Shown here one piece after another: positions 15,101 through 48,526 of a stretch of 64,000 nucleotides of DNA. The stretch covers positions 10,727-74,726 of the forward strand of contig JBLMVJ010000035.1 of assembly GCA_050255815.1 (NCBI GenBank). The letters are read 5' to 3'. The stretch is from Candidatus Levyibacteriota bacterium (GTDB taxonomy: Bacteria > Patescibacteriota > Microgenomatia > Levybacterales > GWA1-39-11). The notes under the pieces are model-generated. The model had not been told where the DNA came from. It did not search any database and saw only the letters and a list, made by a program, of their open reading frames with translations. A program made the translations under genes and the position numbers. How positions within the stretch are numbered: position 1 is the stretch's first letter; every line of letters begins with the position of its first letter.

Positions 15101-15106
15101 ACACAT

Positions 15107-15184: not shown

Positions 15185-15194
15185 AAATTAAAGT

Positions 15195-21434: not shown

Positions 21435-21445
21435 ATTTCCGAGGG

Positions 21446-22596: not shown

Positions 22597-22695
22597 TTAG
22601 TAATTCCCCTTTCATAATTAGAATGATACATTCTACCACAGGAAGAACCTATCCGCAAGGAAATTCCAAAGCTCTTATTTCCCTTCTGATCGATC

Positions 22696-22753
22696 CCTTC
22701 CAATTCCATCACTTGAAACAGAACCCATGAGAAACGAGTGAACGAGCGCCCGG
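22696..22753. repeat. copy C of the ~55-nt intergenic repeat family
   Basis: ccttccaattccatcacttgaaacagaacccatgagaaacgagtgaacgagcgcccgg aligns with copies A and B. Confidence 0.5.
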
Positions 22754-22881
22754 AAAGAACACACATGAGGGACTGTTGCGAAGCGGTTCTTTCAGTGAGT
22801 GAACGAGTTTTGAATGGATGAATGGTTCATCGTGATGGCAGTTTTTGCTCAACTTTTTGCTGCCAAAAAGTTGAAAGAAAC

Positions 22882-23343: not shown

Positions 23344-23641
23344 GCGATCAATTATATCAGATTTCAGATAACACTGGTCTTCTTCCCGTCATAATTCTGT
23401 CAAGATTTAATAACTTCAATAAGGCAAAATAATCTTCTATGAACAGCTATGAATTAGGGAAAAACATTGGACAAGCACAGGATAAAGGTATTGAACATAG
23501 GCTTTCTCCACCCAGGCCAGGCATAGAAACAAGAAGAATGACGACAAGGGCTGTAATAGATGTACTATTACTCAGAGAAAGAGGGATTACTCTTGGGAAA
23601 CCTTCTGCCAAGAGGGTTAAATAATCTGCTAAAATATCCTC

Positions 23642-24241
23642 ATGGATCTTTTGATAGGGGTTGTCATCCTCATTTTCTCTGCTATTTTACATGAGGTTAT
23701 GCACGGATGGGTAGCTGATAAGTTAGGCGACCCTACGGCCCGGCTCATGGGGCGCTTGACCCTCAATCCCATCCCCCACATAGACCCGCTCATGAGCGTT
23801 GTCATTCCCATTATTCTGATTCTGGCACACTCCCCTATTATTTTTGGGGCTGCAAAACCGGTCCCGGTAAATCCTATGCATTTGCATGACGGGAAAAAAG
23901 ATTTTGCACTGGTAGGACTAGCGGGTCCGTTAACTAATGCAGTTATTGCAATTATTGCAGCCGGCCTTTTACACATAGTTCCTGCTGATAACTTCATTGC
24001 CTATATATTATCCCTGGTAGTCCTCTATAACCTCATCCTGGCTTTTATCAACCTAATCCCTATCCCGCCACTAGATGGATCACGGGTCATCACATTCTTG
24101 CTCCCTGACGATCTGGCACGCAAGTACCTTTCTATAGAGTCTTTTGGTATTGTCATCTTATTCCTTCTTCTGTCGTTTACTAATCTGGGAGCTGTCCTTT
24201 TCAACCTCATCACCTTCTCCATGCACTTATTAGGTTTGTAG
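23642..24241 (+). CDS. M50 family (site-2 protease-like) membrane zinc metalloprotease
   Basis: HEVMHG zinc motif in TM1 and NLIPIPPLDG motif. Confidence 0.7.
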   Translation: MDLLIGVVILIFSAILHEVMHGWVADKLGDPTARLMGRLTLNPIPHIDPLMSVVIPIILILAHSPIIFGAAKPVPVNPMHLHDGKKDFALVGLAGPLTNAVIAIIAAGLLHIVPADNFIAYILSLVVLYNLILAFINLIPIPPLDGSRVITFLLPDDLARKYLSIESFGIVILFLLLSFTNLGAVLFNLITFSMHLLGL

Positions 24242-24270
24242 TTGCAAGAAAATACACAGTCTTGTACCAT
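24242..24270 (+). promoter_or_regulatory. sigma70-like promoter abutting the enolase start
   Basis: TTGCAA at 24242-24247, 17-nt spacer, TACCAT at 24265-24270, then 8 nt to the ATG at 24279. Confidence 0.4.
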
Positions 24271-24278
24271 TAGTTCAG

Positions 24279-25529
24279 ATGAAAATTACTGATATCAAAG
24301 CGCTTGAAATCCTTGACTCCCGCGGCAACCCCACCGTACGCACTTTTTTGCAAACTGAGGATAACTCCTGGCATGTTGGATCTGTCCCTTCCGGCGCCTC
24401 TACCGGATCTAATGAAGTCTTGGAGCTGCGTGACAATGATGAGAAGCGGTATGGCGGGAAAGGTGTCCAGAAAGCCGTAGAGAACGTAAATACAAAGATC
24501 AAAGACCTGGTCAAAGACCAGGAAACAGACCCTAAAGAGATAGACAAAAAAATGCTGGAGCTCGATGGTACCGGGGATAAATCAAACCTGGGTGCAAATG
24601 CAATACTGTCAGTTTCCATGGCAGTGACCCACGCTGCCGCACACTCTTCCCACCTGCCTCTTTGGCAATATGTAAGGCAATACTTCTTCCCCAACCTGAA
24701 TAACCTGGAAGCAAATAAATTTCCCCAGCTTATGGTGAACATAGTAAACGGTGGCAAGCATGCAGGCTGGAACTTTGACCTGCAGGAATTTATGGTAGTA
24801 CCGGTCTCCGCTACTCCCTCTGAGAGTATCAGGGTTGCCTCTGAAGTCTTCCATTCACTTGGGAAATTACTGAAGGAGAAAAATCTTTCCACTTTAGTGG
24901 GTGATGAAGGCGGCTATTCCCCTGCTTTAGGTTCTAATGAAGAAGTATTGGATACCATAACAGAAGCAGCAAAACGCGCTGGATATGAAAGAGGAAAAGA
25001 CTACCGCCTTTCTCTAGACTGTGCTGCATCCGAGTTTTTTGAGGACGGCAAATATATATTTAAGAAGGCAAATAAAACGTTAAACGGGGAAGAACTCAGG
25101 AATTATTATAAGGAGCTGGGGCAAAAATATGGAATACTTTCTTTTGAAGACCCCTTTGATGAAGATGACTGGGATTCTTGGAAGGCATTCCAGGAAACTT
25201 CTGGCTCGGAATTCACCTTAATAGGAGATGACCTGTTTACTACAAATCCTGAGCGAATTAAACACGGAATAGAAATGAAAGCCGCAAACGGGGTTTTAAT
25301 CAAGTTAAACCAGATAGGCACGGTGTCTGAAACCGCAGAAGCAATACGGCTAGGAAAAGATGCGGGCTGGAAGATAGCCGTCTCCCACCGGTCAGGAGAA
25401 ACAGAAGATAATTTTATTGCAGATTTAGCTTATGCCAGCAACGCTGACTTTATCAAATCCGGCTCCATGAGCAGATCTGAAAGACTTTCCAAATACAACC
25501 GCCTCCTGGAAATAGAAAAAGGTATCTAG
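24279..25529 (+). CDS. eno: enolase
   Basis: MKITDIKALEILDSRGNPTV N-terminus, SHRSGETED motif, 416 aa. Confidence 0.92.
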   Translation: MKITDIKALEILDSRGNPTVRTFLQTEDNSWHVGSVPSGASTGSNEVLELRDNDEKRYGGKGVQKAVENVNTKIKDLVKDQETDPKEIDKKMLELDGTGDKSNLGANAILSVSMAVTHAAAHSSHLPLWQYVRQYFFPNLNNLEANKFPQLMVNIVNGGKHAGWNFDLQEFMVVPVSATPSESIRVASEVFHSLGKLLKEKNLSTLVGDEGGYSPALGSNEEVLDTITEAAKRAGYERGKDYRLSLDCAASEFFEDGKYIFKKANKTLNGEELRNYYKELGQKYGILSFEDPFDEDDWDSWKAFQETSGSEFTLIGDDLFTTNPERIKHGIEMKAANGVLIKLNQIGTVSETAEAIRLGKDAGWKIAVSHRSGETEDNFIADLAYASNADFIKSGSMSRSERLSKYNRLLEIEKGI

Positions 25530-25573
25530 ATCCCTTGCTTTATACTTAATACATACTACATAATACTTAATAC

Positions 25574-26203
25574 ATGTCTTACCTGGTTTTAGTCCGTCAT
25601 GGATTATCTGAGTACAATAAAAAGGGCTTATGGACCGGATGGACTGATGTATCACTGGCGCCGGAAGGGATTGAACAGGCTAAAAAAACCGGCGAAGAAT
25701 TAAAAGACATCCGCATAGATTACGCTTACACCTCTGATTTAAAAAGGACCCAGGAAACGTTACACGAAATTCTACAGGTTATCGGCCAGTTTCCGGAAAT
25801 AACTTCAGATAAAGCCTTTAATGAGCGTAATTACGGAATCTACACTGGACGCAACAAATGGGATGTAAAAAAAGAGGTTGGGGAGGAAAAGTTTTTAGAT
25901 ATCAGAAGAGTTTATGATTACTCCATTCCTGAAGGGGAATCTTTAAAGCAGGTTTATGAACGCGAAGTGCCATATTATAAAGCGGAGATTGAACCAAAAC
26001 TCATGGCAGGTAAAAATGTTGTGATTGCATCCTCCGGAAATCCATTGCGGGCGTTGGTTAAATACCTGGAAAATATTTCAGACGAGGACATAGACAAGCT
26101 TGAAATAGGAACAGGCGAAGCATATGTTTACCAGATAGATTCCAATGGCAAAGTAATTAATAAGGAAATCAGAGGTAAAAATCCCATGGCAGGAAAGGTA
26201 TAG
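25574..26203 (+). CDS. gpmA: 2,3-bisphosphoglycerate-dependent phosphoglycerate mutase-like histidine phosphatase
   Basis: LVRHGLSEYNKKGLWTGWTDV (RHG motif). Adjacent to eno. Confidence 0.75.
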   Translation: MSYLVLVRHGLSEYNKKGLWTGWTDVSLAPEGIEQAKKTGEELKDIRIDYAYTSDLKRTQETLHEILQVIGQFPEITSDKAFNERNYGIYTGRNKWDVKKEVGEEKFLDIRRVYDYSIPEGESLKQVYEREVPYYKAEIEPKLMAGKNVVIASSGNPLRALVKYLENISDEDIDKLEIGTGEAYVYQIDSNGKVINKEIRGKNPMAGKV

Positions 26204-26944
26204 TTACTTCTGAGGTACTGCGGCTTGAATCTCCGGCTTCACCATAGTGTATGGAAGCGTTATGAGTTTATTGTCTGCCTTAATCCGCAGCTCATCCTGC
26301 TTATTAAACTTCACAAATTTCTCAGCAACAAAAACGTTCACATCCCTACCCTCCTTATTAGTACCGGTAACTTTTACCCACTCCTTCTTTCCGTCCTGAT
26401 CATATAATCCTCCATAAACCTCTACCATTTTTAAATCATCAAGCTTAATACCCAGCTTCTCAACATCCTGTTGGGACATAACTGAACCATCCACTCTTGG
26501 CTCTAAATGGAATATAGGAGCTTGGTACTCTGCTTTCGTAGTAATATTTCCGCTAATAGGAATCTCTCCTATGGATCCTCCTCTATAAACTATTCCATCT
26601 CTTCCTGTATTTGGATCCGTAGCTATGGCTTCCGGCCTAGGATCCCCAAATTTATGGCCTTCTGACGCTAGGCTTTCTGCAAGGGCATTAGTATCTGCTT
26701 CCTGCTGTGTAGTGAGTCCTATTTGGGTAATATGGGAGGCTGCAGAATCTATGGTGCCCGCAGCGTCCCCTATAGGTCCTGAGGCAACCTTTACCCCGCC
26801 TATTCCGAGCGCTGCAATAAAAGCTGCTACGGTTAACTTTGCTTTTTCTGAAAAACGAGGTTTCCGGGGGCTTGAAATGTCCCGGGCATTCTCCATTTTA
26901 AAGCTGGGGCGCCTATCCCCTACTGTGTCTACCATACCTACCAT
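26204..26944 (-). CDS. hypothetical membrane-anchored protein
   Basis: Single N-terminal TM segment (LTVAAFIAALGIGGV). No family recognised. Confidence 0.5.
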   Translation of the reverse strand: MVGMVDTVGDRRPSFKMENARDISSPRKPRFSEKAKLTVAAFIAALGIGGVKVASGPIGDAAGTIDSAASHITQIGLTTQQEADTNALAESLASEGHKFGDPRPEAIATDPNTGRDGIVYRGGSIGEIPISGNITTKAEYQAPIFHLEPRVDGSVMSQQDVEKLGIKLDDLKMVEVYGGLYDQDGKKEWVKVTGTNKEGRDVNVFVAEKFVKFNKQDELRIKADNKLITLPYTMVKPEIQAAVPQK

Positions 26945-26984
26945 CCTACCTTTTTAGCTCTTCCGGTGTCAAGCTGGTAGATAA

Positions 26985-27983
26985 ATGCAGTATAATATTC
27001 CCATGTCTCCCATCATTTCAGTTGACCATCTAGTAAAAACATATAAAGTCCACAAGAAAGACCCGGGGTTTATGGGATCCGTAAAGTCTTTAGTAAACAG
27101 AAAATATGAACAGGTCCATGCGGTAAAAGATATTTCTTTTGAGATAAATCCCGGAGAGCTGGTAGGCTTTATAGGGCCTAATGGTGCAGGAAAAACTACC
27201 ACGCTGAAATGTCTGTCCGGTTTGCTTTTTCCCAGTGCCGGAAAGGTTGAAGTATTAGGATATGAACCTTTCCAAAGAAAAACCCCTTTTCTGAAGCAGA
27301 TTGCCCTGGTCATGGGACAGAAAAACCAGCTCTGGTGGGACCTTCCCCCTACAGAAACTTTTATCTTAAATAAGGAAATATATGAGGTGCCGGAGAAGCG
27401 GTTCAAAGAAACACTGAATGATTTAGTGGAACTCTTAGATGTAAAGGACGTGTTGAATATTCAGGTCCGGAAGTTATCTCTAGGGCAACGCATGAAATGT
27501 GAGCTAATTGCTGCCCTTCTCCACTCCCCTAAGGTTTTATTTTTAGACGAGCCAACCATAGGACTGGATGTAGTAATGCAGAAAAAACTCCGCGACTTTA
27601 TTAAACAATACAATGAAAAATACAACGCCACTATTATTTTGACCAGTCATTATATGGAGGATGTGCGGCAGCTATGTGAGCGAGTCATAGTCATAGACCA
27701 TGGAATGCTGCTGTTTGACGGAAGATTAGACGCGCTGGTGAAAGAATACACCCAGCACAAACTGATCTCTATAGTGTTTGAGAAAAAAGTGGAACGAAAG
27801 GATCTGGAAAAGTTAGGAACAGTACTGGAATATGACTTTCCAAAGGTTATCCTTTCCGTAAACCGCAAAGATTCCAACCAGGCTACTTCAAAACTCCTGA
27901 AAGACTTCCCCGTTGCGGATTTAAATATCCAGGAACCGGATATAGAAGACATCATTAGAGAGGTCTTTTCAAGAAAGAAATAA
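26985..27983 (+). CDS. ABC transporter ATP-binding protein (ABC-2 type system)
   Basis: Walker A GPNGAGKTT, signature LSLGQRM, Walker B LFLDEPT. Confidence 0.85.
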   Translation: MQYNIPMSPIISVDHLVKTYKVHKKDPGFMGSVKSLVNRKYEQVHAVKDISFEINPGELVGFIGPNGAGKTTTLKCLSGLLFPSAGKVEVLGYEPFQRKTPFLKQIALVMGQKNQLWWDLPPTETFILNKEIYEVPEKRFKETLNDLVELLDVKDVLNIQVRKLSLGQRMKCELIAALLHSPKVLFLDEPTIGLDVVMQKKLRDFIKQYNEKYNATIILTSHYMEDVRQLCERVIVIDHGMLLFDGRLDALVKEYTQHKLISIVFEKKVERKDLEKLGTVLEYDFPKVILSVNRKDSNQATSKLLKDFPVADLNIQEPDIEDIIREVFSRKK

Positions 27984-27986
27984 ACC

Positions 27987-28040
27987 AAGAAATTCAGTAG
28001 AAATAGATAGAAATTCATAGAAACTAAATTGTATTTATTG
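27987..28040. repeat. degenerate copy of the 74-nt GAAATT-rich element
   Basis: agaaattcagtagaaatagatagaaattcatagaaactaaattgtatttattg resembles the 5' two-thirds of 29685-29758. Confidence 0.4.
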
Positions 28041-28093
28041 CTGCACTTCAGTTTCTACCAATTTCAACTAATAGCTACCATTTTCTATGCCTT

Positions 28094-28894
28094 ATGTTGC
28101 GCAGTCTGAAATTATTTTTAGTAGAATGCCAGCTGGTGATTGAGGTAAAAAGCCTCTCCGTAGTGTGGTTTTTAGCCTCCATTTCAGGATCTATCCTTAT
28201 GATTATCTTCTGGACCGGTGTTACCAGCGCAAACGGCGGCTCCATTTCCGGCTGGAACACGGGAAGTTTTGCCACGTACTACCTCCTGGTTGCTCTGGCG
28301 GGGTCTCTCTTTATAGCCCATATAGAAGAAAATGTTTCCTTTCAAGATATCCAAAGAGGTGAGCTCTCTATGTATCTTTTGAAACCCTTCCCTTATTTTA
28401 GGTTTAAGCTGCTGATTGAGCTCCCCTGGCGCTTCATGCAAGGTGCTTTTGCCATTATAAGCATGATTTTAGTATTTCTGCTGGTTCCTCACCTGATCCA
28501 GATCACCCTTTCCCCGGTCCTGCTTCCTATGGCAATTTTATTAGTTTTCAGCGCCTTTTTATTGTCATTTACTTTCAAAATGTGCCTGGGGCTTCTGGCT
28601 TTCTGGTTTACAGAAATCAACTCACTCCTGCAGCTGACTGAAATTATTCTTACCCTCTGCGCAGGCTTCATAGTGCCATTGGTGTTCCTCCCAAATTATT
28701 TGCAAACCCTTTTTAATATCCTTCCGTTCTCTTACATGGTCTACTACCCTATCCTGGCACTTTTAGGAAAACTTAACCCAGACCAAGAAATACGAGTGTT
28801 TGGTATACAAATGTTGTGGACCTTTTTATTCTATCTACTCTATAAATTTCTCTGGAGGAAAGGAAGGCTGAAATTTACTGCCGTAGGACACTAA
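28094..28894 (+). CDS. ABC-2 type transporter permease (type 1 of a pair)
   Basis: Six TM segments. Resembles the 29793-30587 product; both end in an aromatic/basic tail (KFTAVGH versus KLYGAQGR). Confidence 0.7.
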   Translation: MLRSLKLFLVECQLVIEVKSLSVVWFLASISGSILMIIFWTGVTSANGGSISGWNTGSFATYYLLVALAGSLFIAHIEENVSFQDIQRGELSMYLLKPFPYFRFKLLIELPWRFMQGAFAIISMILVFLLVPHLIQITLSPVLLPMAILLVFSAFLLSFTFKMCLGLLAFWFTEINSLLQLTEIILTLCAGFIVPLVFLPNYLQTLFNILPFSYMVYYPILALLGKLNPDQEIRVFGIQMLWTFLFYLLYKFLWRKGRLKFTAVGH

Positions 28895-28895
28895 T

Positions 28896-29681
28896 ATGCA
28901 TTACCTAAAGATCTTAAAAGCGCTGATAGTCATTAACACCGCATACGCGTTAGAGTACAAGGCGCATTTTGTGGCCCAGGTTTTTGCAAGCCTGGCCTGG
29001 GGCGTATTTTCCGTGGTCAACATGATCCTTTTGACGTACCGCGTCCACTCTGCTTTTGGCTGGAGCAGGAATGAGCTCATCCTTCTTTCCGTTATGGTTA
29101 ATGTAGTCTATGGCATCCACCGTATGTTGTTTGATGTAAACTTCTGGAGATTCTCCCGGATTATCCATTATGGAGAAATGGACATGGTGCTGTTAAAGCC
29201 CGTGGACTCCCAGTTCCAAATGAGCATGTGGATCATAGATATTAGCGGTATCTTCAGATTTTTAGTTGCCCTAGCGCTCACCTTTATCCTGGTTTTTGCC
29301 ATGCACTTTCCTATTTCTCTGACAAGTGTGTTGATTGCCACTATTTTAAGCCTGGCCGGTGTGGTCCTTCTCTATGCTTTCACCTATATCTTCCTAACCC
29401 TCACCATCTGGTTCTCTAACCTCTCTAACCTGATGGGACTGGTGAATAATATCCTTTCTATGTCCCGGTATCCAAAAGAAATGTATGAAGGATTAGGCAC
29501 CTACTTTTTCTTTTTTCTCTTGCCTTTAATTGTTATAATAAGCACTCCTACAAAAGCTCTCATCCAAAAGGGGAACCTGTTAGATAGTCTGCTTTTAGTA
29601 CTCTTTACTATCCTATTTTTTGCAATCTCAAGGGTGTTCTGGAAATTCGCCCTGCGGTTCTATGTCAGTGCTTCAGGATAA
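28896..29681 (+). CDS. ABC-2 type transporter permease (type 2 of a pair)
   Basis: Six TM segments. Resembles the 30671-31453 product (C-termini YVSASG versus YTSASS). Confidence 0.7.
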   Translation: MHYLKILKALIVINTAYALEYKAHFVAQVFASLAWGVFSVVNMILLTYRVHSAFGWSRNELILLSVMVNVVYGIHRMLFDVNFWRFSRIIHYGEMDMVLLKPVDSQFQMSMWIIDISGIFRFLVALALTFILVFAMHFPISLTSVLIATILSLAGVVLLYAFTYIFLTLTIWFSNLSNLMGLVNNILSMSRYPKEMYEGLGTYFFFFLLPLIVIISTPTKALIQKGNLLDSLLLVLFTILFFAISRVFWKFALRFYVSASG

Positions 29682-29684
29682 ACA

Positions 29685-29758
29685 GGAAATTAATAGATAT
29701 TCATAGAAATTAAGAAATTGATTGTAATTACACAATTTAGTTTCCATGAATTTCGCGA
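29685..29758. repeat. 74-nt GAAATT-rich intergenic element, copy 1
   Basis: About 95% identical to 48527-48599, read directly. Confidence 0.85.
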
Positions 29759-29792
29759 CCGTAGGGAGCTTATTTCCAAAAATTTCTTTCTT

Positions 29793-30587
29793 ATGTATAA
29801 ATATTTCCGTATCTTCACCAATGTCTGGGGCAAAGCCCTTTCTTACCGGGTCAACTTTATCATGTGGCGTGTCCGTGTGGTGCTCCAACTTCTAACGTTA
29901 TTCTTTTTGTGGTCTACTATTCTCACCAACAGGACTGCTATCTTTGGCTACTCTACTTCCCAAATGCTCACGTACATTTTAGGCACTTCGCTCATTTCTT
30001 CTGTAGTTTTGTCCAGCCGCACTTTTGAAGTAGGAGACCAGATAAATGACGGTACGCTTTCTAATTTTCTGATCAAACCCATGTCCTACATAAAATACTG
30101 GTTCTTTTATGACCTGGGGGATAAAGCCAGCAACATATTTTTCTCTATAATCGAATTAACGATAATCATCTTTCTGTTCCGTCCGCCCCTTTATGTCCAA
30201 ACCAATCCCACCTATCTCATGTTTACCCTGGTTTCCGCGTTTTTAGCATTACTTTTATACTTTTACTTTGGCTTTTTACTGGGGCTTTTAGGATTCTGGA
30301 GCAATGAAGTGTGGGGACCACGCTTTATTTTCTTTATCATCATTAACTTTTTTGCCGGCGCTATGTTCCCGCTGGATGCGCTGCCAAAACAAGTGGTAAG
30401 CGTTCTCCAGCTTTTCCCATTCCCGTACCTTCTATACTTTCCGCTGAAGATTTATTTAGGAAAGATTTCTTTCCCGTTGATTATTCAAGGGCTCTTCATC
30501 TGTTCCGTGTGGATGGTAGGATTGTATTTTATTTGTAAATTTATCTGGTTAAAAGGATTGAAATTGTATGGGGCGCAAGGGAGATGA
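29793..30587 (+). CDS. ABC-2 type transporter permease (second type 1 copy)
   Basis: The listed ORF (29718) begins inside the repeat element. ATG 29793 (MYKYFRIF) is preferred. Confidence 0.65.
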   Translation: MYKYFRIFTNVWGKALSYRVNFIMWRVRVVLQLLTLFFLWSTILTNRTAIFGYSTSQMLTYILGTSLISSVVLSSRTFEVGDQINDGTLSNFLIKPMSYIKYWFFYDLGDKASNIFFSIIELTIIIFLFRPPLYVQTNPTYLMFTLVSAFLALLLYFYFGFLLGLLGFWSNEVWGPRFIFFIIINFFAGAMFPLDALPKQVVSVLQLFPFPYLLYFPLKIYLGKISFPLIIQGLFICSVWMVGLYFICKFIWLKGLKLYGAQGR

Positions 30588-30670
30588 GAATGTATCAAGT
30601 GTTAAGTAGCAAGTAGTATGTATTTTCTTGTGTCTCTTTGACTCTTTTGTAACCTTTGACTCTCATAATT

Positions 30671-31453
30671 ATGTCTAAATATTTTAAAATCTGGTTCACT
30701 TCTATGCTGCACCAGGCGCAGACTGCGTTTGCGTCCCGCCTGGGGGTGGTAGTGTTTTTAGTGGGAAAGCTCTTGCGCTTCTACTTTTTCCTCCTCTTCC
30801 TCTTTTTAATAGTCCATCAAACAAAAAGCATAGCGGGATATTCTCTATGGGAAGTAATTTTTTTCTATGCAACGTTTAATTTAATAGATTCTTTTCCCCA
30901 AATGGTCCTCCGATCTGTCTATGGATTTAGGAATTATGTAGTGTCAGGATTTTTTGATTTTTATATGGTCCAACCAGTCTCCCCCCTATTTAGGTCACTT
31001 TTTGGCGGTTCTGATATTCTTGATATCCCAATGCTATTTTTATCTATTGGATATATTATTTATTCTTCATTTATGCTACCCCATTTTTCAATCACCGGCG
31101 TCTTTTTATACATCTTACTGATCTTAAATGCCTTTATTATCTCTTTAGCATTCCATATTCTGGTCTTATCTATTGGGGTTATAAGCACGGAGGTGGATAA
31201 TACGGTAATGCTCTACCGGGACCTGACACAAATGGGAAGGCTGCCTATAGATATTTATAAACAAGCAGTAAGTTTTATCCTGACGTTTGTAATTCCCGTG
31301 GGAGTTATGATCACGTTTCCCGTAAAAGCGCTTCTGGGCGCACTTTCTCTCCAATTCATAGGATACTCTGTGGTATTTTCCGTGGTATTTCTTACGCTCT
31401 CACTCTTTCTCTGGACAAAGTCATTGAAAAATTACACCAGTGCCAGCAGCTAA
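30671..31453 (+). CDS. ABC-2 type transporter permease (second type 2 copy)
   Basis: The listed start is TTG 30656. ATG 30671 (MSKYFKIW) is preferred. Confidence 0.65.
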   Translation: MSKYFKIWFTSMLHQAQTAFASRLGVVVFLVGKLLRFYFFLLFLFLIVHQTKSIAGYSLWEVIFFYATFNLIDSFPQMVLRSVYGFRNYVVSGFFDFYMVQPVSPLFRSLFGGSDILDIPMLFLSIGYIIYSSFMLPHFSITGVFLYILLILNAFIISLAFHILVLSIGVISTEVDNTVMLYRDLTQMGRLPIDIYKQAVSFILTFVIPVGVMITFPVKALLGALSLQFIGYSVVFSVVFLTLSLFLWTKSLKNYTSASS

Positions 31454-31456
31454 TGA

Positions 31457-32062
31457 CTATTTGTTGTACTTGCTCATATAGAGGTCTATGCCGTGTTTTA
31501 CAATAAGCGCTACATCTTTCACCGTCTGGTTCACCATAGTCCTGGTTTTACTCTTATCTGCTGCGGTAAATGCTGCCAGAACATAGCCGCCAACCACCTC
31601 TGAAGTTTGGTTTTTTCCGCGTACTTGGCCTGTTCTACCCGGATGGCCAATACCCAACCGGATCCTGAGGAATTTATCCGTACCCAAGCGTTCTAAAATA
31701 GACTCTACTCCATTATGGCCACCTGATGCCCCGCCAAACCTAATCCTGATTTTCCCCAGGGGTAAATCCAGGTCATCATGGACTATGCAAATATCTTCAG
31801 GTTTTATTTTAAAATAAGAAGAATATAATTGGATTGCTTCACCGGAATTATTCATGAAAGTGGTAGGCTTGAGAAGCACTATTTTCTCCCCTTCTATTTC
31901 TACTTCTGCGGTTAGTGATTTAAACTTTTTCTCTTCACTCCATTCCGTCTTTTTCAATTTTGTATACTTCTTGAGGATAGTGTCCAACGCAATAAATCCC
32001 ACATTATGGCGGGTATTTTCATACTTCTCACCGGGATTTCCAAGACCTACTATTAGCTTCAC
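31457..32062 (-). CDS. pth: peptidyl-tRNA hydrolase
   Basis: MKLIVGLGNPGEKYENTRHNVGF N-terminus and GGHNG motif. Confidence 0.9.
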   Translation of the reverse strand: MKLIVGLGNPGEKYENTRHNVGFIALDTILKKYTKLKKTEWSEEKKFKSLTAEVEIEGEKIVLLKPTTFMNNSGEAIQLYSSYFKIKPEDICIVHDDLDLPLGKIRIRFGGASGGHNGVESILERLGTDKFLRIRLGIGHPGRTGQVRGKNQTSEVVGGYVLAAFTAADKSKTRTMVNQTVKDVALIVKHGIDLYMSKYNK

Positions 32063-32195
32063 GAATCAATTATATCACGCAAAATTAAGAAAAATGTGAT
32101 GTTTGTCACAGAAAACTAACAGGGAATGAAATATTCGAGTTAATAAGACCTTTCCGCGCTAAAACGTGGACTTCGCCTGCTTTTTGAAAAAAGTT

Positions 32196-33350
32196 TTAAT
32201 AATTTTTGCCGGGGTTGGTGATGAGGACTTCATGGGGGTGGGATTCCGTAAGGGAGGCCTGGGTAATCTGGATGAAACGGACCTTTTTCTGCAATTCAGG
32301 AATAGTCTTTGCTCCTACATAAAACATGCCGGACTTCATACCACCTATTGCCTGGCTCAGAATGTCTTGTAGGTTTCCTTTTACCGGTACCAGTCCCTCT
32401 ACCCCTTCAGCAACTAGTACTTTATCTTTATAAGATTTACCGTGGTACTCATCCTCACTCTTTATTTTTGCCCCGTGCTGCATAGCGCCAACAGACCCCA
32501 TTCCCCGGTAAGATTTAAAGCGGTAAACTTTCTGATCTTTCTTCCAGATACTCTTAAAACGGGTCGGGACATTTTCCGCAGTTAATTCTATTACCTCTCC
32601 CGGCGCTTCTTCTGTGGAAGCAAAAAAGGAACCCATCATAACCGTTTCAGCGCCTGCTGCAAGGGCTTTCACCATGTCACCTGAGTACTTGATACCCCCG
32701 TCTGCAATAACCGGCACCCCATGCTTTTTAGCGGCCCTTACGGTTTCCATAATGGCAGTTATCTGAGGAACTCCCATCCCTGAGATAATCCGGGTAGTAC
32801 AAATGGCACCAGGACCCATCCCTACTCTCAATGAATCTGCTCCTGCTTTACATAAATCTTCTGCTGCGTCATATGTAGCAATATTTCCTATAATAAGCTC
32901 TACTTTTGGATAATTCTTTTTGATAAATTTGGTGGCTTCTATGAATTTATTAGTCCACCCGTGTGCTGAGTCTAGCACTATAACATCTGCGCCTGCTTTC
33001 AGAAGTGCTTCCAAACGTTCTTTGTAACCGTCCGAAACACCAATAGCAGCACCTACTAAAAGCTTCTCTTTCTTTACCTGATAAACTTCTTCTGCTTGTC
33101 TTATAGGAGTGAGATTTCTATGGATAATTCCTATACCACCTAATTTTGCCAGCCCTATGGCCAGCTCAGATTCAGTTACGGTATCCATGGGAGCGGAAAC
33201 AAAGGGAGATTGTAAAGAGATTTTTTTAGTTAAACGGGTGGAAAGGTCTATATCAGAACGGGAAAAATCAGAATAACCGGGGGTAAGCAAAACATCATCA
33301 AAGGTGAGACCTACGGGAAGTTGATTTAGGGTACCAGAAGTAGCTGCCAT
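32196..33350 (-). CDS. guaB: IMP dehydrogenase family enzyme lacking the CBS (Bateman) subdomain
   Basis: [20 protein letters not shown], catalytic-loop [11 protein letters not shown], and [12 protein letters not shown]. Only 384 aa, with a short linker where the CBS pair normally sits. Confidence 0.8.
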
Positions 33351-33355
33351 GATTA

Positions 33356-33384
33356 ATGATACAGCACGCTCCCTGTATTGTCAA
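33356..33384 (-). promoter_or_regulatory. sigma70-like promoter abutting the guaB-like start (leaderless geometry)
   Basis: On the minus strand: TTGACA (33384-33379), 17-nt spacer, TATCAT (33361-33356), then 5 nt to the ATG at 33350. Confidence 0.45.
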
Positions 33385-33479
33385 TAATAGTAGATGAAAG
33401 GGAAATCGCAGGGAAAGTGGAGGTAAAACACTTCACTCGCTAATAATTGGAAGAATAACTAAACCGATTTTGCTCCTCA

Positions 33480-33575
33480 GTCCTGGCCTTGACCTTAGGC
33501 GCGCAGTCCCAAAGGGGGACGAGCACCGCAAGTCAAGCAACTGGAATGGAAACAAAACAGTACAAATGTAGTAGA
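33480..33575 (-). pseudogene. degenerate 5S rRNA-like tandem copy
   Basis: The 36-nt segment 33461-33496 repeats 33579-33614 (the 5S 3' end plus trailer) with 4 mismatches. In between are a helix IV-like hairpin and a CCATTCC loop-C-like remnant. Confidence 0.3.
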
Positions 33576-33598
33576 TGATAAACCGGCTTTGCCCTTCA

Positions 33599-33719
33599 GT
33601 CCTGGCCTTGACCTATCTTCCCATGTTGTGTAACAACAAAGTATTGTGAGCGCTGACGTGTTTCACTTCTCTGTTCGGAATGGGAAGAGGTGGGACCACA
33701 TCGCTCTAAAGACCAAGAC
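33599..33719 (-). rRNA. rrf: 5S rRNA
   Basis: The reverse complement reads TCTTGGTC...GGTCCCACCTCTTCCCATTCCGAACAGAGAAGTGAAAC...GGCCAGGA, with helix I pairing between the termini. Confidence 0.85.
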
Positions 33720-34000
33720 TCAAGAGCAAAACCGGTAAGATCCGAATCTACTCGAATAGTTTGGGGTAACTTCTAGGCTACCCCATTCTTCTCGAATATT
33801 TCGAATTAACATTAACAAACACTAGCGCATTCGAATTGATTCGATTTAAATTCGAACCATTCGAGAATGATTTCTTAGAATCCACGCTATTTGGATCGAC
33901 CTATTAGTACAACTTCGCTGAAACAGTTACCTGTCTTACACGTGTTGCCTATCAACCTGATGGTCTCTCAGGGGTCTAAAAGAGATCTTATCTTAGGGTG

Positions 34001-34033
<33 letters not shown>

Positions 34034-34268
34034 CATGGAAATCTAGCTACCCAGCAGTGCACTTGTAAGTACAACTGGCACACCAGGGATTTCCTCACCC
34101 CAGTCCTCTCGTACTAGGGGCGACTCCCTTCAAATCTCAAACGGTTGTCCTGGATAGAGTCCGAACTGTCTTACGACGTTCTTAACCCAGCTCGCGTACC
34201 TTTTTAACTGGCGAACAGCCAGACGCTTGGGAGCTTCTCCACCCCCGCGCTAAGATGAGCCGACATCG

Positions 34269-34698
34269 CTGTCAATCCAATCAGTAATTAAGAAAGACTT
34301 AAAAACTTAAAACTGATGGTGATACTCTTGTTACCAAGAGCCTCTGACTATACCTTCATCCGCCAACTGGCGGAGCTAGTCGTATGATACAGATTATAAA
34401 TTTCTCTTTATGAGATGAATCCATATCTCACCCTCTCACCTATGCTGGTGAGGGGTTCAGTCGATAGGGTCCAAAAGAAATTTAAAATTCAGAAGTTAAA
34501 ATTCAGAATTAAATTCTTAATTCTGAAATCTGAATTCTTAACTCTATTTGAACCTCGGTATTACCCTCTTGTGTTCAGAAAGTAGGGTTTCACCGATTTG
34601 GACTAGTTATTTAAATTATTAGTACCTTGTTTTTTGACTCAAATACTAATAAATACAGGCAAGAGTATTACTACTCAGGCGCCCCGATATTTTCATAT
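34269..34698 (-). mobile_element. group I-type intron (430 nt, no ORF) after the E. coli U2500 equivalent
   Basis: Exon junction is GGCACCU | CGAUGUCGGCUC. The 5' exon ends in U and the intron ends in G. GATGAAGGTATAGTC (reverse complement of 34346-34360) resembles the group I J8/7-P7 core. Confidence 0.7.
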
Positions 34699-34742
34699 AA
34701 GGTGCCAAACCGCATCGTCGCTGTGGACGCTTGGATGCGATC

Positions 34743-34775
<33 letters not shown>

Positions 34776-35230
34776 AAGCTACGTCCCAACCACTAAGGAA
34801 CGCAGGATCACTAACACCTGCTTTCGCACCTGCTCGACTTGTAGGTCTCGCAGTCAAGCTGGCTTGTGCGTTTGCACAATACGCTCCGATTTCCGTCCGG
34901 AGTTAGCCAACCTTTGTACGCCTCCGTTGCACTTTAGGAGGCAACCTCCCCAGTTAAACTGCCCACCAGACACTGTCTTTTAGCCGTATTTTTATGCGGC
35001 ATTAAAGTAATGCTCACTCATCTTAAAGAGAGGTATTTCATTGATGACCGAAGTCTCCCTCCTATACTAAACAGTTAAAATAAGCTTGCAAATGTCAAGC
35101 TACAGTAAAGCTCCCGGGGTCTTTTTGTCCTAGGACAACCAGGCCGCGTCTTCACAGCCATCTCAATTTCGCCGTGTAAATGTTCAAGACAGTTACTCAG
35201 TCGTTCTACCTTTCGTGCGGGTCGGAACTC

Positions 35231-35548
35231 CATTGTTTTAATGTTCCAACATGGAACCTCACAGTCGCCTGTGAGATCGGACTATATCTTTCCCTTACCA
35301 AATTGGTGAGGGATCTAGCGTCTAGTCTCTGAGGGTTTTCCGATAAATCGGAATCTTCCCTGCTGATTGGCTCCACCAAGCAGATTTTTACTCTTACGAG
35401 TACTGTTGGATACTGAGCTGTTCCAGCAAATAGCTAGATTTTACACTCATTTAGGTTAACGATTGTGTTCTTACGTGACTGTTTTGCTTGTTCCTGATGT
35501 GTATCCCGATTAGATCGGGACTCGGGCAAGTTGATTTGACCCAAACCA
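35231..35548 (-). mobile_element. group I-type intron (~318 nt, no ORF) after the E. coli U1951 equivalent
   Basis: Exon junction is UCCUUGUCGGGU | (G)AGUUCCGACC. The 5' exon ends in U and the intron ends in G. AAGATATAGTCC (reverse complement of 35279-35290) and GAGACTAGACG core-like motifs are present. Confidence 0.65.
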
Positions 35549-36885
35549 ACCCGACAAGGAACTTCGCTACCATAGAACAGTTATAGTTACTGCTGCCGTT
35601 CACCGGAGCTTTAGAAAGCGGCTCCACCTTGCGGTTTCACCACCCACTATTGACTTACCGGCACTGGGCAGGTGTCAGCCCCTATACGTTACCTTTCGGT
35701 TTTGCAGGGACCTGTGTTTTAGATAAACAGTCGCTAAGTAATCTTTTGCTTAACCTGGATGTTACTCCAGGCAGGGCATCTCCCATAGGTTACGCCCAGC
35801 TTTTGTTGCCGAGTTCCTTGAACATTTGTCTCACGGTCGCCTTAGTCTACTCGACCAATCCACCTGTGTCGGTTATGCGGTACGGCAAAATATAGCACTC
35901 CTCACGAATCTTTTCCTGAAGACTGAAACTTACGATCCTCACCCTACTTTCTTGCGATTTCAGATTTGCATTCGCCACTTAATTAAACACTTTGACGGAT
36001 TTGCCCATCAAAACTATCTTATGGCTTGGACCCTGTTTACAGGGCGATCCTTTCCACTCTTGTCCATCCTTGAGTAATAACGCACTATACTCTGTAGCAG
36101 AATATTAACTGCTTGTCCATCCGGCTACCCCGCGCTTTATGACGGGCCACCGTTAGGAGCCGACTAACGCTGCGCTGACTTACATTGCGCAGCAAACCTT
36201 GGATTTTCGGCGGACGCCGTTCTCAGGCGTCATTCGCTACTCATGCCGGCATTCTCACTTGTAAACGCTCCACCATACCTTACAGTACAGCTTCGCTGCA
36301 TTTACGACGCTCCCCTACCACTTGCTCCGATAAATCGGAGTCAAATCTCCATCGTCGGTATTAAGCTTAATCCTCGATCATTTCCGGCGCCATTCTCCAA
36401 TGTCGACTAGTGAGCTGTTACGCTTTCTTTAAAGGATGGCTGCTTCTGAGCCAACCTCCTAGCTGTCTATGGAAAATGACTTCCTTATCAACTTAGCTTA
36501 AATTTAGAGACCTTAGATGGGAGTCTGGGCTGTTTCCCTTTAGACCCACGAGCTTAGCCCCGCAAGTCTGACTCTCTATTAAGTTTTTACGGTATTCGGA
36601 GTTTGATTGATCCTGAAAAGTTGCCTCTCCAGAGACCATTCAGTGCTCTACCCCCGTAAAAACATACAAAAGGCTATACCAAAATATATTTCGGGGAGAA
36701 CCAGCTATCTCCAGGTTCGTTTAGTATGTCACCCCTTACCACAAGTCGTCTCAGATCATTGCTGCGATCACGAGTTCGGGCCTTCCTCATCCTTTCGAAC
36801 AAGTTCACCCTGCTCATGGTAAGCTCACCTGGTTTCGGGTCTTTTGCAATGCGCATTTAGGTATCCCAGTTAGAGATCGCTTTCA

Positions 36886-36992
36886 CTATGCCTCCCCCCT
36901 CACCTTTCCAACGAAAATTCCAACCTTTGTTTTAAATCGAGCTTGTTTCGATAATATTTCAAAGTGGTAATCCTCATTAGAATGGTGAGGGG
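36886..36992 (-). other. 107-nt stem-closed expansion/insertion in the 23S domain II helix-25 region
   Basis: Closed by cccctcacc (36886-36894) pairing with ggtgagggg (36984-36992). Absent from the E. coli and B. subtilis sequence as I recall it. Confidence 0.5.
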
Positions 36993-37360
36993 TTAGACTG
37001 CGCAATACAAAAACTCACCGGCTCATTCTTCAATAGGCACGACGTTATACCCTTGCGGGCACTTCGTCTGCTTGTTAGCTAATAGTTTCAGTAACTCTTT
37101 CATTCCCCTCCCGGGGTGCTTTTCACCTTTCCCTCGCGGTACTAGTTCACTATCGGTAGATGTTGATATTTAGCTTTGGAGCGTGGTCGCCCCGGCTTCC
37201 CACAGGGTTTAATCGTACCCCATGGTACTCAGGAACAGGCAAGAAGTGAAAATCATTTCAAATACGGGACTATCACCCTCTTTGGTCTCTTTTTCCAAAA
37301 CGTTCTTCTATGATTTCCATTTGTGACTTCTTTTGCATTTAAGCAAGCCGTCCTACAACC

Positions 37361-37660
37361 CCCCTCACCTTTTTATCACTAACCTTTTTAAAAGTTCTTG
37401 CCAAGCTTTTGCGCGCTTCTTAAGCGCCTGCTCTCTTCTAAAAGCTAATTTATAAGAAGTATATGCTTCATAATAAATAAGCTCCCATGGCAAAAACTTT
37501 TTAGTATATATAGACTTTCCTTTATTATGGTCCGTAAATCGAGTTTTAAGATCTTTTGTTGAACCAATATAAAACTGGTCGAACTTTACACTCTTAAGAA
37601 TATACGTGTAGAACATAAGTCTATTATAGTTATTTAAGTTAGGAACAAAAAGGTGAGGGG
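37361..37660 (-). mobile_element. 300-nt stem-closed intervening sequence in 23S domain I carrying a GIY-YIG ORF
   Basis: Perfect 10-bp closing stem: cccctcacct (37361-37370) with aggtgagggg (37651-37660). It replaces the short hairpin that follows ...CAGCYCAAACC in other bacteria. Confidence 0.6.
37365..37616 (-). CDS. small GIY-YIG (URI-domain, COG2827/YhbQ-like) nuclease encoded inside the 23S insertion
   Basis: MFYTYILKS...FYIGSTKDLKTRFTDHN...E...ALKREQALKK pattern. Same orientation as the rRNA. The stop codon lies within the closing stem. Confidence 0.8.
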   Translation of the reverse strand: MFYTYILKSVKFDQFYIGSTKDLKTRFTDHNKGKSIYTKKFLPWELIYYEAYTSYKLAFRREQALKKRAKAWQELLKRLVIKR

Positions 37661-38003
37661 TTTGAGCTGTTCCGCGTTCGCTCGCCGCTACTGACGGAAT
37701 CTCTGTGATTTCTTTTCCTCGGACTACTTAGATGTTTCAGTTGGTCCGGTATCCCGCCGACTACTAATATATTAATCTTGCGACTAATAACTTCATAGCA
37801 GGCTCCCAGTTAAACTGGGGGGTTTCCCCATTCGGACACCACCGGATCATAATGTCTTCGGCCATTCCCCGGTGATTTTCGCGAGCCAGATGCGTCCTTC
37901 TTCGGTCAACACCTCCTAGGCATCCACTATTAGCATGAATCAAATAGCGTAGATTCTAAAAAACCAATTCATTAAAAACCATGCCTCGGCTTGAAACATG
38001 GAA

Positions 38004-38028
38004 AATCCGCCACCCGGCGGATTTTTTT
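38004..38028. terminator. GC hairpin with flanking A/T runs in the tRNA-Ala to 23S spacer
   Basis: aatccgcc-accc-ggcggatt followed by T7 on the plus strand, and by TTTTCC on the minus strand. Confidence 0.35.
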
Positions 38029-38222
38029 AATCCTCCGTCCCGATTAGATCGGGACTTCGGCCTAGTTGTTTGTTTGTAATTCTTCCAATTATTAATGAGC
38101 AAAACGCTTTTTGCGTTGCCCTCGGATGTAATCCGAGGCCATATCTCTCCTGTACTCGTTTCTCGCCGGGAAGTATATTGCCCTTCCACCAGCGAGGAAC
38201 CAATACAAGAAAACTAAAAAAG

Positions 38223-38295
38223 TGGACCCAAGGAGATTTGAACTCCTGACCTCGTCATTGCAAATGACGCGCTCTACCAGCTAAGCTATGGGCCC
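38223..38295 (-). tRNA. tRNA-Ala (anticodon UGC)
   Basis: The reverse complement GGGCCCATAGCTTAGCTGGTAGAGCGCGTCATTTGCAATGACGAGGTCAGGAGTTCAAATCTCCTTGGGTCCA folds as a cloverleaf with G3:U70. CCA is not encoded. Confidence 0.95.
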
Positions 38296-38560
38296 CGAGT
38301 GTAACGAGGGGCACACAAGGTTCTGATTTCGCAGAAATCAGGTTCTTATGGGCCCTTGAGATATATTGCAATCACTCAAACCTGCTTACCTAAGCATGAA
38401 GCTTGGCAAAGCGGTCCACAAAAAAGACATTTTCAAACCAAAACAGGGAATCAAAAAAAATAGAAACGCGAGCAACAGGGATCGAGATTACTCGATGTAT
38501 TGAGGTTAAATTACGTTTTTCGTCATAAAATAGGCTTGATTTCCCGTAAAGGTAAAGACT

Positions 38561-38589
38561 ATTCTAGCTTTATTTGAGGCTCTTGTCAA
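38561..38589 (-). promoter_or_regulatory. candidate promoter of the tRNA-Ala/23S/5S operon
   Basis: On the minus strand: TTGACA (38589-38584), 17-nt spacer, TAGAAT (38566-38561). Confidence 0.5.
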
Positions 38590-38604
38590 GAGTCAAGAAA
38601 ATAC

Positions 38605-40068
38605 TCAGGATGCAATCTTTTCTTCACTTTCCGGAGCAGCAAAAACAGTACTGGGTTTTAAAAGCATGCTGGTAGCATAATACACCATGCCTGCAGTCCA
38701 AGCTTGATCCAAAGCGCTTGTCTGTCCTGAAAACCTGTCCCGCCAGCGCACATAGGCTCCGGTTTCATCCCGTTTAAACATCTCTATATTAGAACCAAAC
38801 TCACGGATCCGCTCCAGTGATGCTTCTAAAACTTCTTCTGCTTCCCGCCGGTATCCCCTTTTATCCAGTCCTATCGCGGCAAGACCGGACATAAATGGCC
38901 AGTATGTCTCCGGACCATTATGATACCCGTCAGGGTCATGCACTTTTGTATATTTCCCATATGTCCTAAAGCCAGCCTCAGGGTTAAACAGGTCTTCCAT
39001 AAACCCCCGCTTTACCAGATCATGGATATATTGCTCTTCTACTACACTCTCCCCTTTGTGGGTTGCCCACAGGGCAAGTATTGGATCAACCGTAATATTG
39101 GTCACTCTTCTATTGTCTTCATCCAGCGCTTCCGCAAAATACCAAAGATCGGCTTTTTGATCCCGCATAAGAAATCCCCCTTCCGCAGAGTTGAACCGGG
39201 CCTTTAGCTCTGCAGCTTCTTGCCGCAATGTTTCAGCGTAGGCAGGATCTACTCCTTCAAAAAAATCAGCTCCATACCTAAGCGCTCCCCACACAAAAAT
39301 ATTTACCTCAACCGGCTTCCTCCCGAATGGCTTACGGGGATCCCTTCCCTTTTCTTCTGTCACATCATTCTCATGAAGCATGCTGTATGCACTATCTTTC
39401 CAGTTTTGGTTTAAAAGGCCGCCAAATTTCCGGTTAGGATTATAGGAAAAGCCCGCAAATCCGTTGTATTCCCGGATATTTCTCCTGCACCATTCCAGCT
39501 CTTGCTTCATAACCGCCCGCTGCTCAGGGGTAGGATCAAATATCTTCTCCTGGTATAGTTCTCCTTTCAGGATGACGTCTAAAGGAGTTGCATCAGCGCT
39601 GTCCCAGTTTTTCATAATCCCGTCTTTATCTACAAACCATGGACGCTCTCCCCGCGCCAACTGTTCATCAGTCCTGGTTATTAAATGCTCATACCCGGTT
39701 TTTCTGGCTTCATGGATGCTCTGTCCTGCCCAAACACCCAGCTCAGGGTCATCTGCAGGTGCAATATAATAATCCATAGCAAAAAATCCGTTAATAGCAC
39801 GGTTAAACAAAGATCTTTCTGCGGGACTCAGGGTTGTTTTATCCTTAAACGTTTCCAGAAGATAACTAAACGTAATGTAGGTATCGCGCCCAAAATGGGC
39901 ATGATACATTCCTTCAGACCCTTTTGAAGATGAGGCAAAATAGCCTTCATCTGTAATAAGTTCATCTAAATTCTCAAGGGCACGCGCCTGAAGCTTTACG
40001 AGGTCTCTTGTGCTCAACCTATGTTCTGAAGGAATGGATCTTGTCCTACTCTCTAAGTAGTTGTTCAT
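38605..40068 (-). CDS. six-hairpin glycoside hydrolase, glycogen-debranching/amylo-alpha-1,6-glucosidase-like
   Basis: HFGRDTYITFSYLLE-type motif and a size typical of GDE_C-like proteins. Family call is from memory. Confidence 0.5.
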   Translation of the reverse strand: MNNYLESRTRSIPSEHRLSTRDLVKLQARALENLDELITDEGYFASSSKGSEGMYHAHFGRDTYITFSYLLETFKDKTTLSPAERSLFNRAINGFFAMDYYIAPADDPELGVWAGQSIHEARKTGYEHLITRTDEQLARGERPWFVDKDGIMKNWDSADATPLDVILKGELYQEKIFDPTPEQRAVMKQELEWCRRNIREYNGFAGFSYNPNRKFGGLLNQNWKDSAYSMLHENDVTEEKGRDPRKPFGRKPVEVNIFVWGALRYGADFFEGVDPAYAETLRQEAAELKARFNSAEGGFLMRDQKADLWYFAEALDEDNRRVTNITVDPILALWATHKGESVVEEQYIHDLVKRGFMEDLFNPEAGFRTYGKYTKVHDPDGYHNGPETYWPFMSGLAAIGLDKRGYRREAEEVLEASLERIREFGSNIEMFKRDETGAYVRWRDRFSGQTSALDQAWTAGMVYYATSMLLKPSTVFAAPESEEKIAS

Positions 40069-48485: not shown

Positions 48486-48526
48486 ATCTTAAGTTAACCA
48501 CAGGAAAATTGACTAGTCAATGAAAA

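Follow-up and report, generated by a model that had tools for sequence, protein, structure and literature searches.

We analysed a 64-kb stretch of DNA (64,000 nucleotides, hereafter the window; contig JBLMVJ010000035.1 of assembly GCA_050255815.1, positions 10,727 to 74,726) from a Candidatus Levyibacteriota bacterium for the placement of its promoters relative to its start codons. The window has a GC content of ~43% and includes rho, radA, rpsA, eno, gpmA-like genes, an ABC-2 transporter and pth, together with genes for a CBS-less IMP dehydrogenase (IMPDH), trx/trxB, a pilin, an ATP-dependent DNA ligase, recF and several glycosyltransferases. IMPDH and seven further window proteins are identical to those annotated in a Candidatus Levyibacteriota metagenome-assembled genome (NCBI proteins MGE5042140-MGE5042194), and the start codons of that annotation are referred to below as NCBI starts. 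Cyanobacteria, Coxiella and Chlamydiae, which the GC content and an intron in the 23S gene had brought into consideration as sources, are ruled out by the names of these identical proteins.

The IMPDH gene (32196-33350, minus strand) is preceded by the string TTGACA-17-TATCAT-5-ATG (33348-33384), the figures giving the nucleotides (nt) between elements. An earlier reading made from the letters of the DNA (the sequence-only reading) had described this arrangement ahead of a guaB-like gene; a pattern search recovered it exactly, and it scored 11/12 in a promoter scan. The Pfam IMPDH domain begins at residue 14 and an in-frame stop codon lies 10 codons upstream of the ATG, so that this ATG is the only possible start. 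When the upstream regions of seven Levybacteria genomes were aligned, TTGACA-17-TAnnAT-5-ATG was found in all of them, with both promoter boxes and the ATG invariant and the 17-nt spacer and the flanks variable. From this and five comparable sites, all six of which are present as described, the sequence-only reading proposed that promoters lie directly against start codons at several transcription units, that their mRNAs begin at or close to the initiation codon, and that leaderless or SD-independent initiation is the default.

Position of the -10 box relative to start codons

The start codons of the ~51 window genes were compared with the 2,004 other ATGs of the window, and with dinucleotide-shuffled upstream regions over 500 rounds. 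A loose box was defined as TANNNT ending 5-8 nt before the start, and its strict form as at least 5/6 matches to TATAAT. Loose boxes were found at 17 of the 51 window starts versus 7.4% of the other ATGs (p = 7e-8), and strict boxes at 11 versus 1.5% (p = 2e-10). Shuffled upstream regions gave 6.1 ± 2.3 genes with a loose box (maximum 14 in any round) and 1.3 ± 1.2 with a strict one. The count rises to 20/51 if the NCBI starts at 27003, 26935 and 59598 are used. The most frequent gap between box and start is 6 nt, followed by 7 nt; among the remaining window genes, nine have a box 9-13 nt away and six are coupled to the preceding gene.

The same peak is seen in relatives. Across six Levybacteria contigs with public gene calls (106 genes), 51 genes (48%) carry a loose box, compared with 14.3 ± 3.4 in shuffles (maximum 25), and 31 carry a strict one, so that in the window and in the six relatives alike the observed count exceeds that of every shuffle. 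The gap histogram of these contigs is again centred on 6 nt (25 genes), with 15 genes at 7 nt, 11 at 5 nt and 6 at 8 nt. When a single automated pipeline was applied to all loci, loose and strict boxes were present at 29% and 17% of window genes, at 27% and 20% in the syntenic locus L001 (enolase identity 73%), and at 29% and 19% in 25 metagenome loci found through their S1 protein. The corresponding values were 4% and 0% in Pseudomonas, 6% and 1% in Clostridium (30% GC), 6% and 0% in Anaerolineales, and 10% and 1% in Aminicenantes, and a Bacteroidota control locus put through the pipeline gave no such peak. The feature is thus lineage-wide and conserved, and since the signal persists in loci with S1 identities of only 36-44%, the layout probably extends beyond Levybacteria. 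L001 is labelled 'uncultured Gammaproteobacteria' and a second locus, L002, 'Weeksellaceae'; both, however, show a promoter signature of Levybacteria type, in addition to the synteny of L001 with the window. We treated both as relatives, their taxonomic labels probably being wrong or their bins contaminated.

Searches of the window for complete promoters gave a more varied picture. The pattern TTGACA-N16-18-TANNNT-N5-8-ATG, which the sequence-only reading had proposed as a scan, occurs three times versus 0.10 expected, every time at a gene start. Totals of loose promoter matches, by comparison, do not exceed shuffles (39 sites versus 35 expected), and in the whole window TGnTAnnnT-N5-8-ATG occurs 14 times versus 9.0 ± 3.1 expected. 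The informative signal is the position of the motif relative to gene starts, not its total count. These near-background totals, and a TANNNT frequency of 7% at random ATGs, are what would be expected if the spacing were an artefact, arising either from chance TANNNT hexamers in AT-rich intergenic DNA or from the choice of the first ATG during annotation. We regard that explanation as highly improbable: dinucleotide shuffles stay below the observed counts, the 30%-GC Clostridium control stays at 6% (1% for strict boxes), nine of the 14 TGn sites open reading frames of at least 153 codons, the sharpest peak comes from independent public gene calls, and orthologous sites retain their boxes as the flanks diverge.

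Promoter identity and the scarcity of Shine-Dalgarno sequences

An alignment of 68 sites anchored on the -10 hexamer was used to examine the surrounding sequence. An extended -10 element (TGn) precedes 28 of the 68 boxes (41%) versus 5.4% of all TANNNT hexamers, and at least 5/6 matches to TTGACA are found at a distance of 16-18 nt in 18 of the 68 (26%) versus a background of 2.1%. A perfect TTGACA is present at 17.6% of the sites versus 0.5%, and in the counts for single positions, numbered from the hexamer, T-T-G-A is seen at -23 to -20. The promoter of the tRNA-Ala/23S/5S operon (38561-38589, minus strand), where no start codon is involved, has the same form, TTGACA-17-TAGAAT. Among same-strand genes separated from their upstream neighbour by at most 20 nt, a box is present in 4/20, and where the gap is at most 5 nt it is present in none. 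We conclude from the TGn element, the TTGACA spacing, the shared rRNA operon consensus and the absence of boxes at coupled genes that these boxes are sigma-70-type promoters and not ribosome-binding sites: the TTGACA at 16-18 nt, the TAnnnT hexamer, the optional TGn and the use at an rRNA operon are all found.

Same-strand gaps between genes are bimodal, with one class at -8 to +5 nt (coupled genes) and a second that begins sharply at 36-46 nt, approximately the length of a promoter from -35 box to ATG. Two divergent gene pairs hold back-to-back promoters in gaps of 37 and 67 nt. The shorter gap (58385-58427) contains TGtTAGAAT-6-ATG for a HAD hydrolase gene on the minus strand and TGaTAGACT-6-ATG for msrA on the plus strand. 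The longer (59516-59600) contains TATAAT-6-ATG for the gene at 58976-59518 (minus) and TATAAT-8-ATG for a methyltransferase gene (plus, NCBI start 59598). As to the ends of transcription units, intrinsic-terminator-like hairpins are no more numerous than in shuffles in the part of the window that was scanned (21 versus 20.4 at 20000-39999), although most genes seem to have a promoter of their own. The window encodes Rho (7009-8271), on which most termination may depend; alternatively, read-through may be tolerated.

Shine-Dalgarno (SD) sequences are scarce, in agreement with what the sequence-only reading had proposed. SD matches of 4 nt or more lie at -20 to -4 before 8 of the 51 window genes versus 24.5% of control ATGs. 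In the pooled set of 157 genes from the window and the six contigs, which was also used for the 9-13-nt and unexplained fractions given below, an SD core at -18 to -5 is found at 11 (~7%), compared with 28-57% in the control phyla under the same pipeline. Among coupled genes an SD core is present at 4/16, about the background level. The window contains a single clear SD sequence, AAGGAGG before gene 13208, and what had been described as an SD-bearing island reduces to this one gene.

The conserved exception is rpsA (22594-22638, minus strand). Here the extended box TGgTAGAAT is followed by 33 nt that include GAAAGGGG and then by a GTG, giving a leadered gene with an SD-like motif. This promoter, the ~30-nt leader and a GAAAGG or AAGGAGG motif are present in the window, in L001 and in 19/24 other S1 loci (L081-L105); the remaining loci of the 24 are contig ends or have an unclear start. 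The rpsB and tsf genes of another relative (L114) resemble rpsA in this layout. In all 21 loci examined (window 22594-22640, minus strand; L001; L082-L105) the rpsA leader also contains an upstream ATG in a different frame from S1. This ATG lies 4, 7, 10, 13, 19, 22 or 25 nt from the S1 start, a distance of 1 mod 3 in every case, and it opens a short reading frame, mostly of 9-16 codons, that overlaps the S1 start and may be a regulatory upstream reading frame. Retention of SD-like leaders by a minority of genes (rpsA, and rpsB/tsf in L114) suggests that the anti-SD tail of the 16S rRNA is probably still present. Within the candidate phyla radiation (CPR), reports of anti-SD loss are confined to part of the Parcubacteria (PMC9297842).

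An SD-poor genome with a hexamer near its start codons could also be read on the model of the Bacteroidota (group B of GeneMarkS-2), in which a TA-rich hexamer would serve as a non-SD ribosome-binding or unstructured AU-rich element and mRNAs would have ordinary leaders made from promoters further upstream. The near absence of SD sequences is common to both, AU-rich sequence near starts generally favours initiation, and the window encodes an S1 protein of 361 aa. The TGn element at 41% of the hexamers and a TTGACA at 16-18 nt that is 12-35 times more frequent than background would nevertheless not be needed by a ribosome-binding site. Group B motifs precede all genes, including those internal to operons (PMC6028130), whereas the hexamer described here is missing before coupled genes with gaps of at most 5 nt. 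The rRNA operon has the same consensus and the Bacteroidota control locus lacks the peak. A ribosome-binding element is therefore an improbable account of the hexamer, less so than a compositional artefact.

Predicted leaderless initiation and related systems

Leaderless genomes are recognised by a Pribnow box that lies 6-8 nt from the start codon (PMC6028130), and transcription start sites centre 7 bp past the -10 box in 49 mapped bacteria (PMC12641261). The peak of gaps at 6-7 nt places the A of the ATG 7-8 nt past the box; with the prevailing 6-nt gap it falls exactly at the expected start site, and the order of gap frequencies (6 > 7 > 5 > 8 nt) fits the usual spread of transcription start positions. 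It is thus probable, judging from the motifs and their conservation, that in Levybacteria promoters abut start codons, most mRNAs begin at the AUG and initiation without an SD sequence is the norm. The core proposal of the sequence-only reading withstood these comparisons. Its description of such initiation as the default has to be read as covering ~40-48% of all genes.

In this scheme the housekeeping RNA polymerase would use sigma-70-type promoters composed of TTGACA, a ~17-nt spacer and TAnnnT, often with TGn, in which the -10 box of ~40-50% of genes ends 5-8 nt (mode 6) before the start. Transcription would begin at the A of the ATG or 1-2 nt before it to yield an mRNA with neither 5' untranslated region nor SD sequence, and a ribosome carrying initiator tRNA would bind the 5'-terminal AUG directly, as is established for the leaderless mRNAs of other bacteria such as Deinococcus and mycobacteria. 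Downstream operon genes, which overlap the preceding gene or follow it within 5 nt and lack both box and SD, are probably translated by termination-reinitiation coupling, and a minority of genes, of which rpsA is the conserved example, would keep a leader with an SD-like motif.

The promoters could also be real but their start points shifted relative to those of Escherichia coli, producing leaders of 3-10 nt or transcripts that begin within the reading frame and use a downstream start codon. Two observations favour such a shift: ~17% of genes (26/157), recF and trx among them, have a box 9-13 nt from the start, and N. lyticus, the one CPR species with mapped starts, shows a more variable distance from -10 box to start site (PMC12641261). 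The observed gap distribution nonetheless fits start sites 7 ± 1 nt past the box. Pfam domains exclude downstream starts where they are present, since they begin 1-14 residues into the IMPDH, pth, msrA, HAD hydrolase and M50 peptidase products, and at each site no start earlier than the one used is possible behind the preceding in-frame stop. Moreover, leaders of up to ~5 nt are functionally similar to leaderless mRNAs in other systems. We therefore consider a shifted start point unlikely, though the least so of the three alternatives. The recF site (52445-52489, plus strand) illustrates a short leader: the string TTGTAA-18-TACAAT-12-ATG and its 12-nt gap are as the sequence-only reading described them, and the predicted leader of ~5 nt makes the gene short-leadered rather than strictly leaderless.

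Several points weigh against leaderless initiation as the norm. We infer the transcript starts and the mode of translation from geometry alone, and the sample consists of the 64-kb window plus ~250 kb from relatives. TANNNT is a loose motif with a per-gene background of 7-13%, and the publicly annotated starts are not fully independent, the gene finder behind them probably being one that models the same signal. The -35 box is poor (at most 3/6 matches) at 33/68 sites. At the IMPDH gene itself the 5-nt gap places the A of the ATG only 6 nt past the box, a distance among the shortest usually seen. About 30% of the 157 genes have no nearby box, coupling or SD sequence. Finally, no 16S gene, and with it no 16S 3' tail, was found in the window or in any relative locus retrieved.

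The pattern found here is of the GeneMarkS-2 group C type in a new lineage; the principle itself is already known and no new mechanism is involved. Group C genomes have a Pribnow box 6-8 nt from the first genes of operons, a predicted 25-50% of which are leaderless, and are common in Actinobacteria and Deinococcus-Thermus, Mycobacterium tuberculosis being an example (PMC6028130). In the window the peak has the same position and the fraction is similar: its -10 motif is localised near starts with a mode of 6 nt, above shuffles and control phyla, and the box is absent before coupled genes with gaps of at most 5 nt. Levybacteria differ in belonging to a CPR/Microgenomates lineage with low GC (37-44%) and a small genome, and in that their -35 box is a clear TTGACA and their -10 box is often of the extended type. 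They also differ in SD use, since group C is modelled as leaderless plus SD whereas the remaining genes of Levybacteria mostly lack an SD sequence, the core being present at those 11 of 157.

Other systems resemble this arrangement in part. In Deinococcus deserti the majority of mRNAs (60%) begin at the AUG or GUG or beside it, 47% precisely at the start codon, and there too the -10 box lies immediately upstream (PMC4007540). That case was demonstrated by differential RNA sequencing and proteogenomics, whereas the case for Levybacteria, an unrelated phylum, is drawn from DNA sequence. Mycobacteria have a large leaderless share and translate from a 5'-terminal AUG or GUG (PMC4633059; 10.1101/857003); their leaderless genes amount to ~14-30% and most others use SD sequences, whereas Levybacteria have a larger share of leaderless-type genes and few SD sequences. 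Levybacteria are like the Bacteroidota in hardly using SD sequences with ribosomes that are otherwise standard, but the group B motif stands before all genes, internal ones included, and is no promoter, while the Levybacteria motif has a -35 box and TGn and is missing before coupled genes (PMC6028130). In archaeal group D (Haloferax, Sulfolobus), leaderless mRNAs are likewise the main class and promoter position fixes the translation start, but there a TATA box lies ~26 nt upstream and a different polymerase is used, in place of the bacterial sigma-70-type promoters found here (PMC6028130). Literature searches on leaderless or SD-dependent initiation in CPR, Patescibacteria, Microgenomates, Saccharibacteria and Levybacteria found no description of the pattern, the GeneMarkS-2 supplementary tables lying outside the search.

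A broader version of the proposal, to which we give somewhat less than even weight, is that Levybacteria, and probably a wider range of Microgenomates, have a near-SD-free mode of expression in which the promoter defines the translation start, about half of the genes are read from a 5'-terminal AUG and the others are mostly stop-start coupled. Promoters would then be packed into ~36-46-nt gaps or inside the end of the upstream gene, and SD pairing would persist at only a handful of genes of the translation machinery, rpsA among them. If true, no bacterial lineage other than Actinobacteria and Deinococcus-Thermus would have preceded this deep-branching and genome-reduced one in showing a leaderless share on the archaeal scale. 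Leaderless mRNAs are often discussed as an ancestral initiation mode, and this radiation would add a data point outside Actinobacteria, Deinococcus and the archaea. The layout also matters for annotation. Tools that look for an SD sequence easily miscall CPR start codons; three window reading frames have an upstream in-frame ATG in or beside the promoter (26985, 26944 and 59592), which the NCBI starts skip. Operon prediction from intergenic distance would wrongly merge genes, because most appear to have a promoter of their own, in gaps scarcely longer than the promoter itself. Should such organisms become genetically tractable, TGnTATAAT-N6-ATG would be a simple rule for expression constructs.

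Further promoters and neighbouring features

The geometry is kept between genomes at further genes. At eno (24242-24281, plus strand; ATG 24279) the string TTGCAA-17-TACCAT-8-ATG, named by the sequence-only reading, occupies the entire 37-nt gap that separates eno from the stop codon of the M50 peptidase gene ahead of it. Four genomes have TTGCAA-17-TAC(C/T)AT-7/8-ATG at this position (TACTAT-8 in L001, TACCAT-7 in the relatives L106 and L109), and the alignment of the enolase to homologues from many phyla starts at residues 1-3. The M50 peptidase gene itself has TGcTAAAAT-6-ATG (23627-23644, plus), with TGcTACAAT-6 in L106 and L109 and TGcTACAAT-9 in L001. For the ABC ATPase gene (26991-27005, plus; TATAAT-6-ATG) the first ATG, at 26985, lies just before the -10 box; similarity to the L001 orthologue, which has TATAAT-7-ATG, starts at 27003, and because the orthologue and the NCBI start agree we take 27003 as the real start. 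The neighbouring hypothetical gene has TTGACA-18-TAGGAT-7-ATG (26933-26972, minus) with its real and NCBI start at 26935, and its L001 orthologue has TTGACA-17-TAGGAT-6-ATG and the same N-terminus, MVD. The geometry is also kept for the peptidyl-tRNA hydrolase gene pth (32060-32077, minus; TGaTATAAT-6-GTG), which has the same NCBI start and a Pfam domain from residue 3.

A membrane hydrolase-like gene of 153 aa (22882-23343) carries TGaTATAAT-7-ATG (23341-23359, minus), with TATAAT-6-ATG in its L001 and L106 orthologues. About 30 nt upstream of its -10 box lies an imperfect palindrome, CTTGACAGAATT(A/C)TGAC (window ~23385-23402, minus), which is conserved in L001 upstream of 3599-4066 and may be an operator.

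At the remaining sites named by the sequence-only reading the strings are likewise present. The gene for a TPR protein (1271-3373) has TTGACA-17-TAAATT-7-ATG (1235-1273, plus), the 17 nt including a TGa element, and its NCBI start is identical. The pilin gene (48483-48520, minus; ATG 48485) has the weaker -10 described earlier, TTGACT-17-TTAACT-6-ATG, which may alternatively be read with an 18-nt spacer as TAACTT-5. Many stronger sites were absent from that reading, including TGaTACAAT-6-ATG at an NAD(P)HX dehydratase gene (55843-55860, minus; ATG 55845), TGcTATAAT-7-ATG at a GT2 glycosyltransferase gene (61140-61158, minus; ATG 61142) and TGcTACAAT-7-ATG at an 804-aa gene (63680-63698, minus; ATG 63682; gene 61268-63682). 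The geometry is also present as TTGATT-17-TGaTACATT-6-ATG at a histidine phosphatase gene (54054-54091, minus) and as TATACT-6-ATG at a hypothetical gene (56936-56950, plus; gene 56948-57529).

The site at 15107 (15071-15194, plus strand) has the expected string, TTGACT-18-TGaTACAAT-6-ATG, but its ATG opens only a 25-codon reading frame that terminates 10 nt ahead of the ATG of a GT2 gene, which starts at 15195, in agreement with NCBI. The intervening 88-nt stretch (15107-15194) is rich in hairpins, with a predicted fold of -28.3 kcal/mol (z = -4.4), and it is bracketed by a 10-nt direct repeat, ATGTTTCAGA, at 15107 and 15195. Searches for an Rfam family, for further copies and for an orthologue gave no match. 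The segment 15107-15204 looks like an insertion into a once-leaderless GT2 gene, or like a structured regulatory leader.

A patch at 9750-12150 stands out in composition, with 52-66% GC in a 43% GC genome. It contains a 488-aa reading frame (10524-11990) that is rich in Pro, Gly and Asn and has tandem repeats but matches no Pfam or NCBIfam family. The patch may be foreign DNA or a chimeric assembly.

The rRNA operon (33600-38589, minus strand) consists of tRNA-Ala, 23S and 5S genes under its own promoter and has no 16S gene, the lineage being one in which 16S and 23S-5S are unlinked. At 4,067 nt the 23S gene is longer than the 2,925-nt model, and it contains a group I intron at 35258-35526, and LAGLIDADG reading frames are found inside the 23S genes of four relatives (L109, L112, L113 and L115). 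The gene order of the window (trxB, rRNA operon, IMPDH) recurs in L106, L109, L112 and L113.

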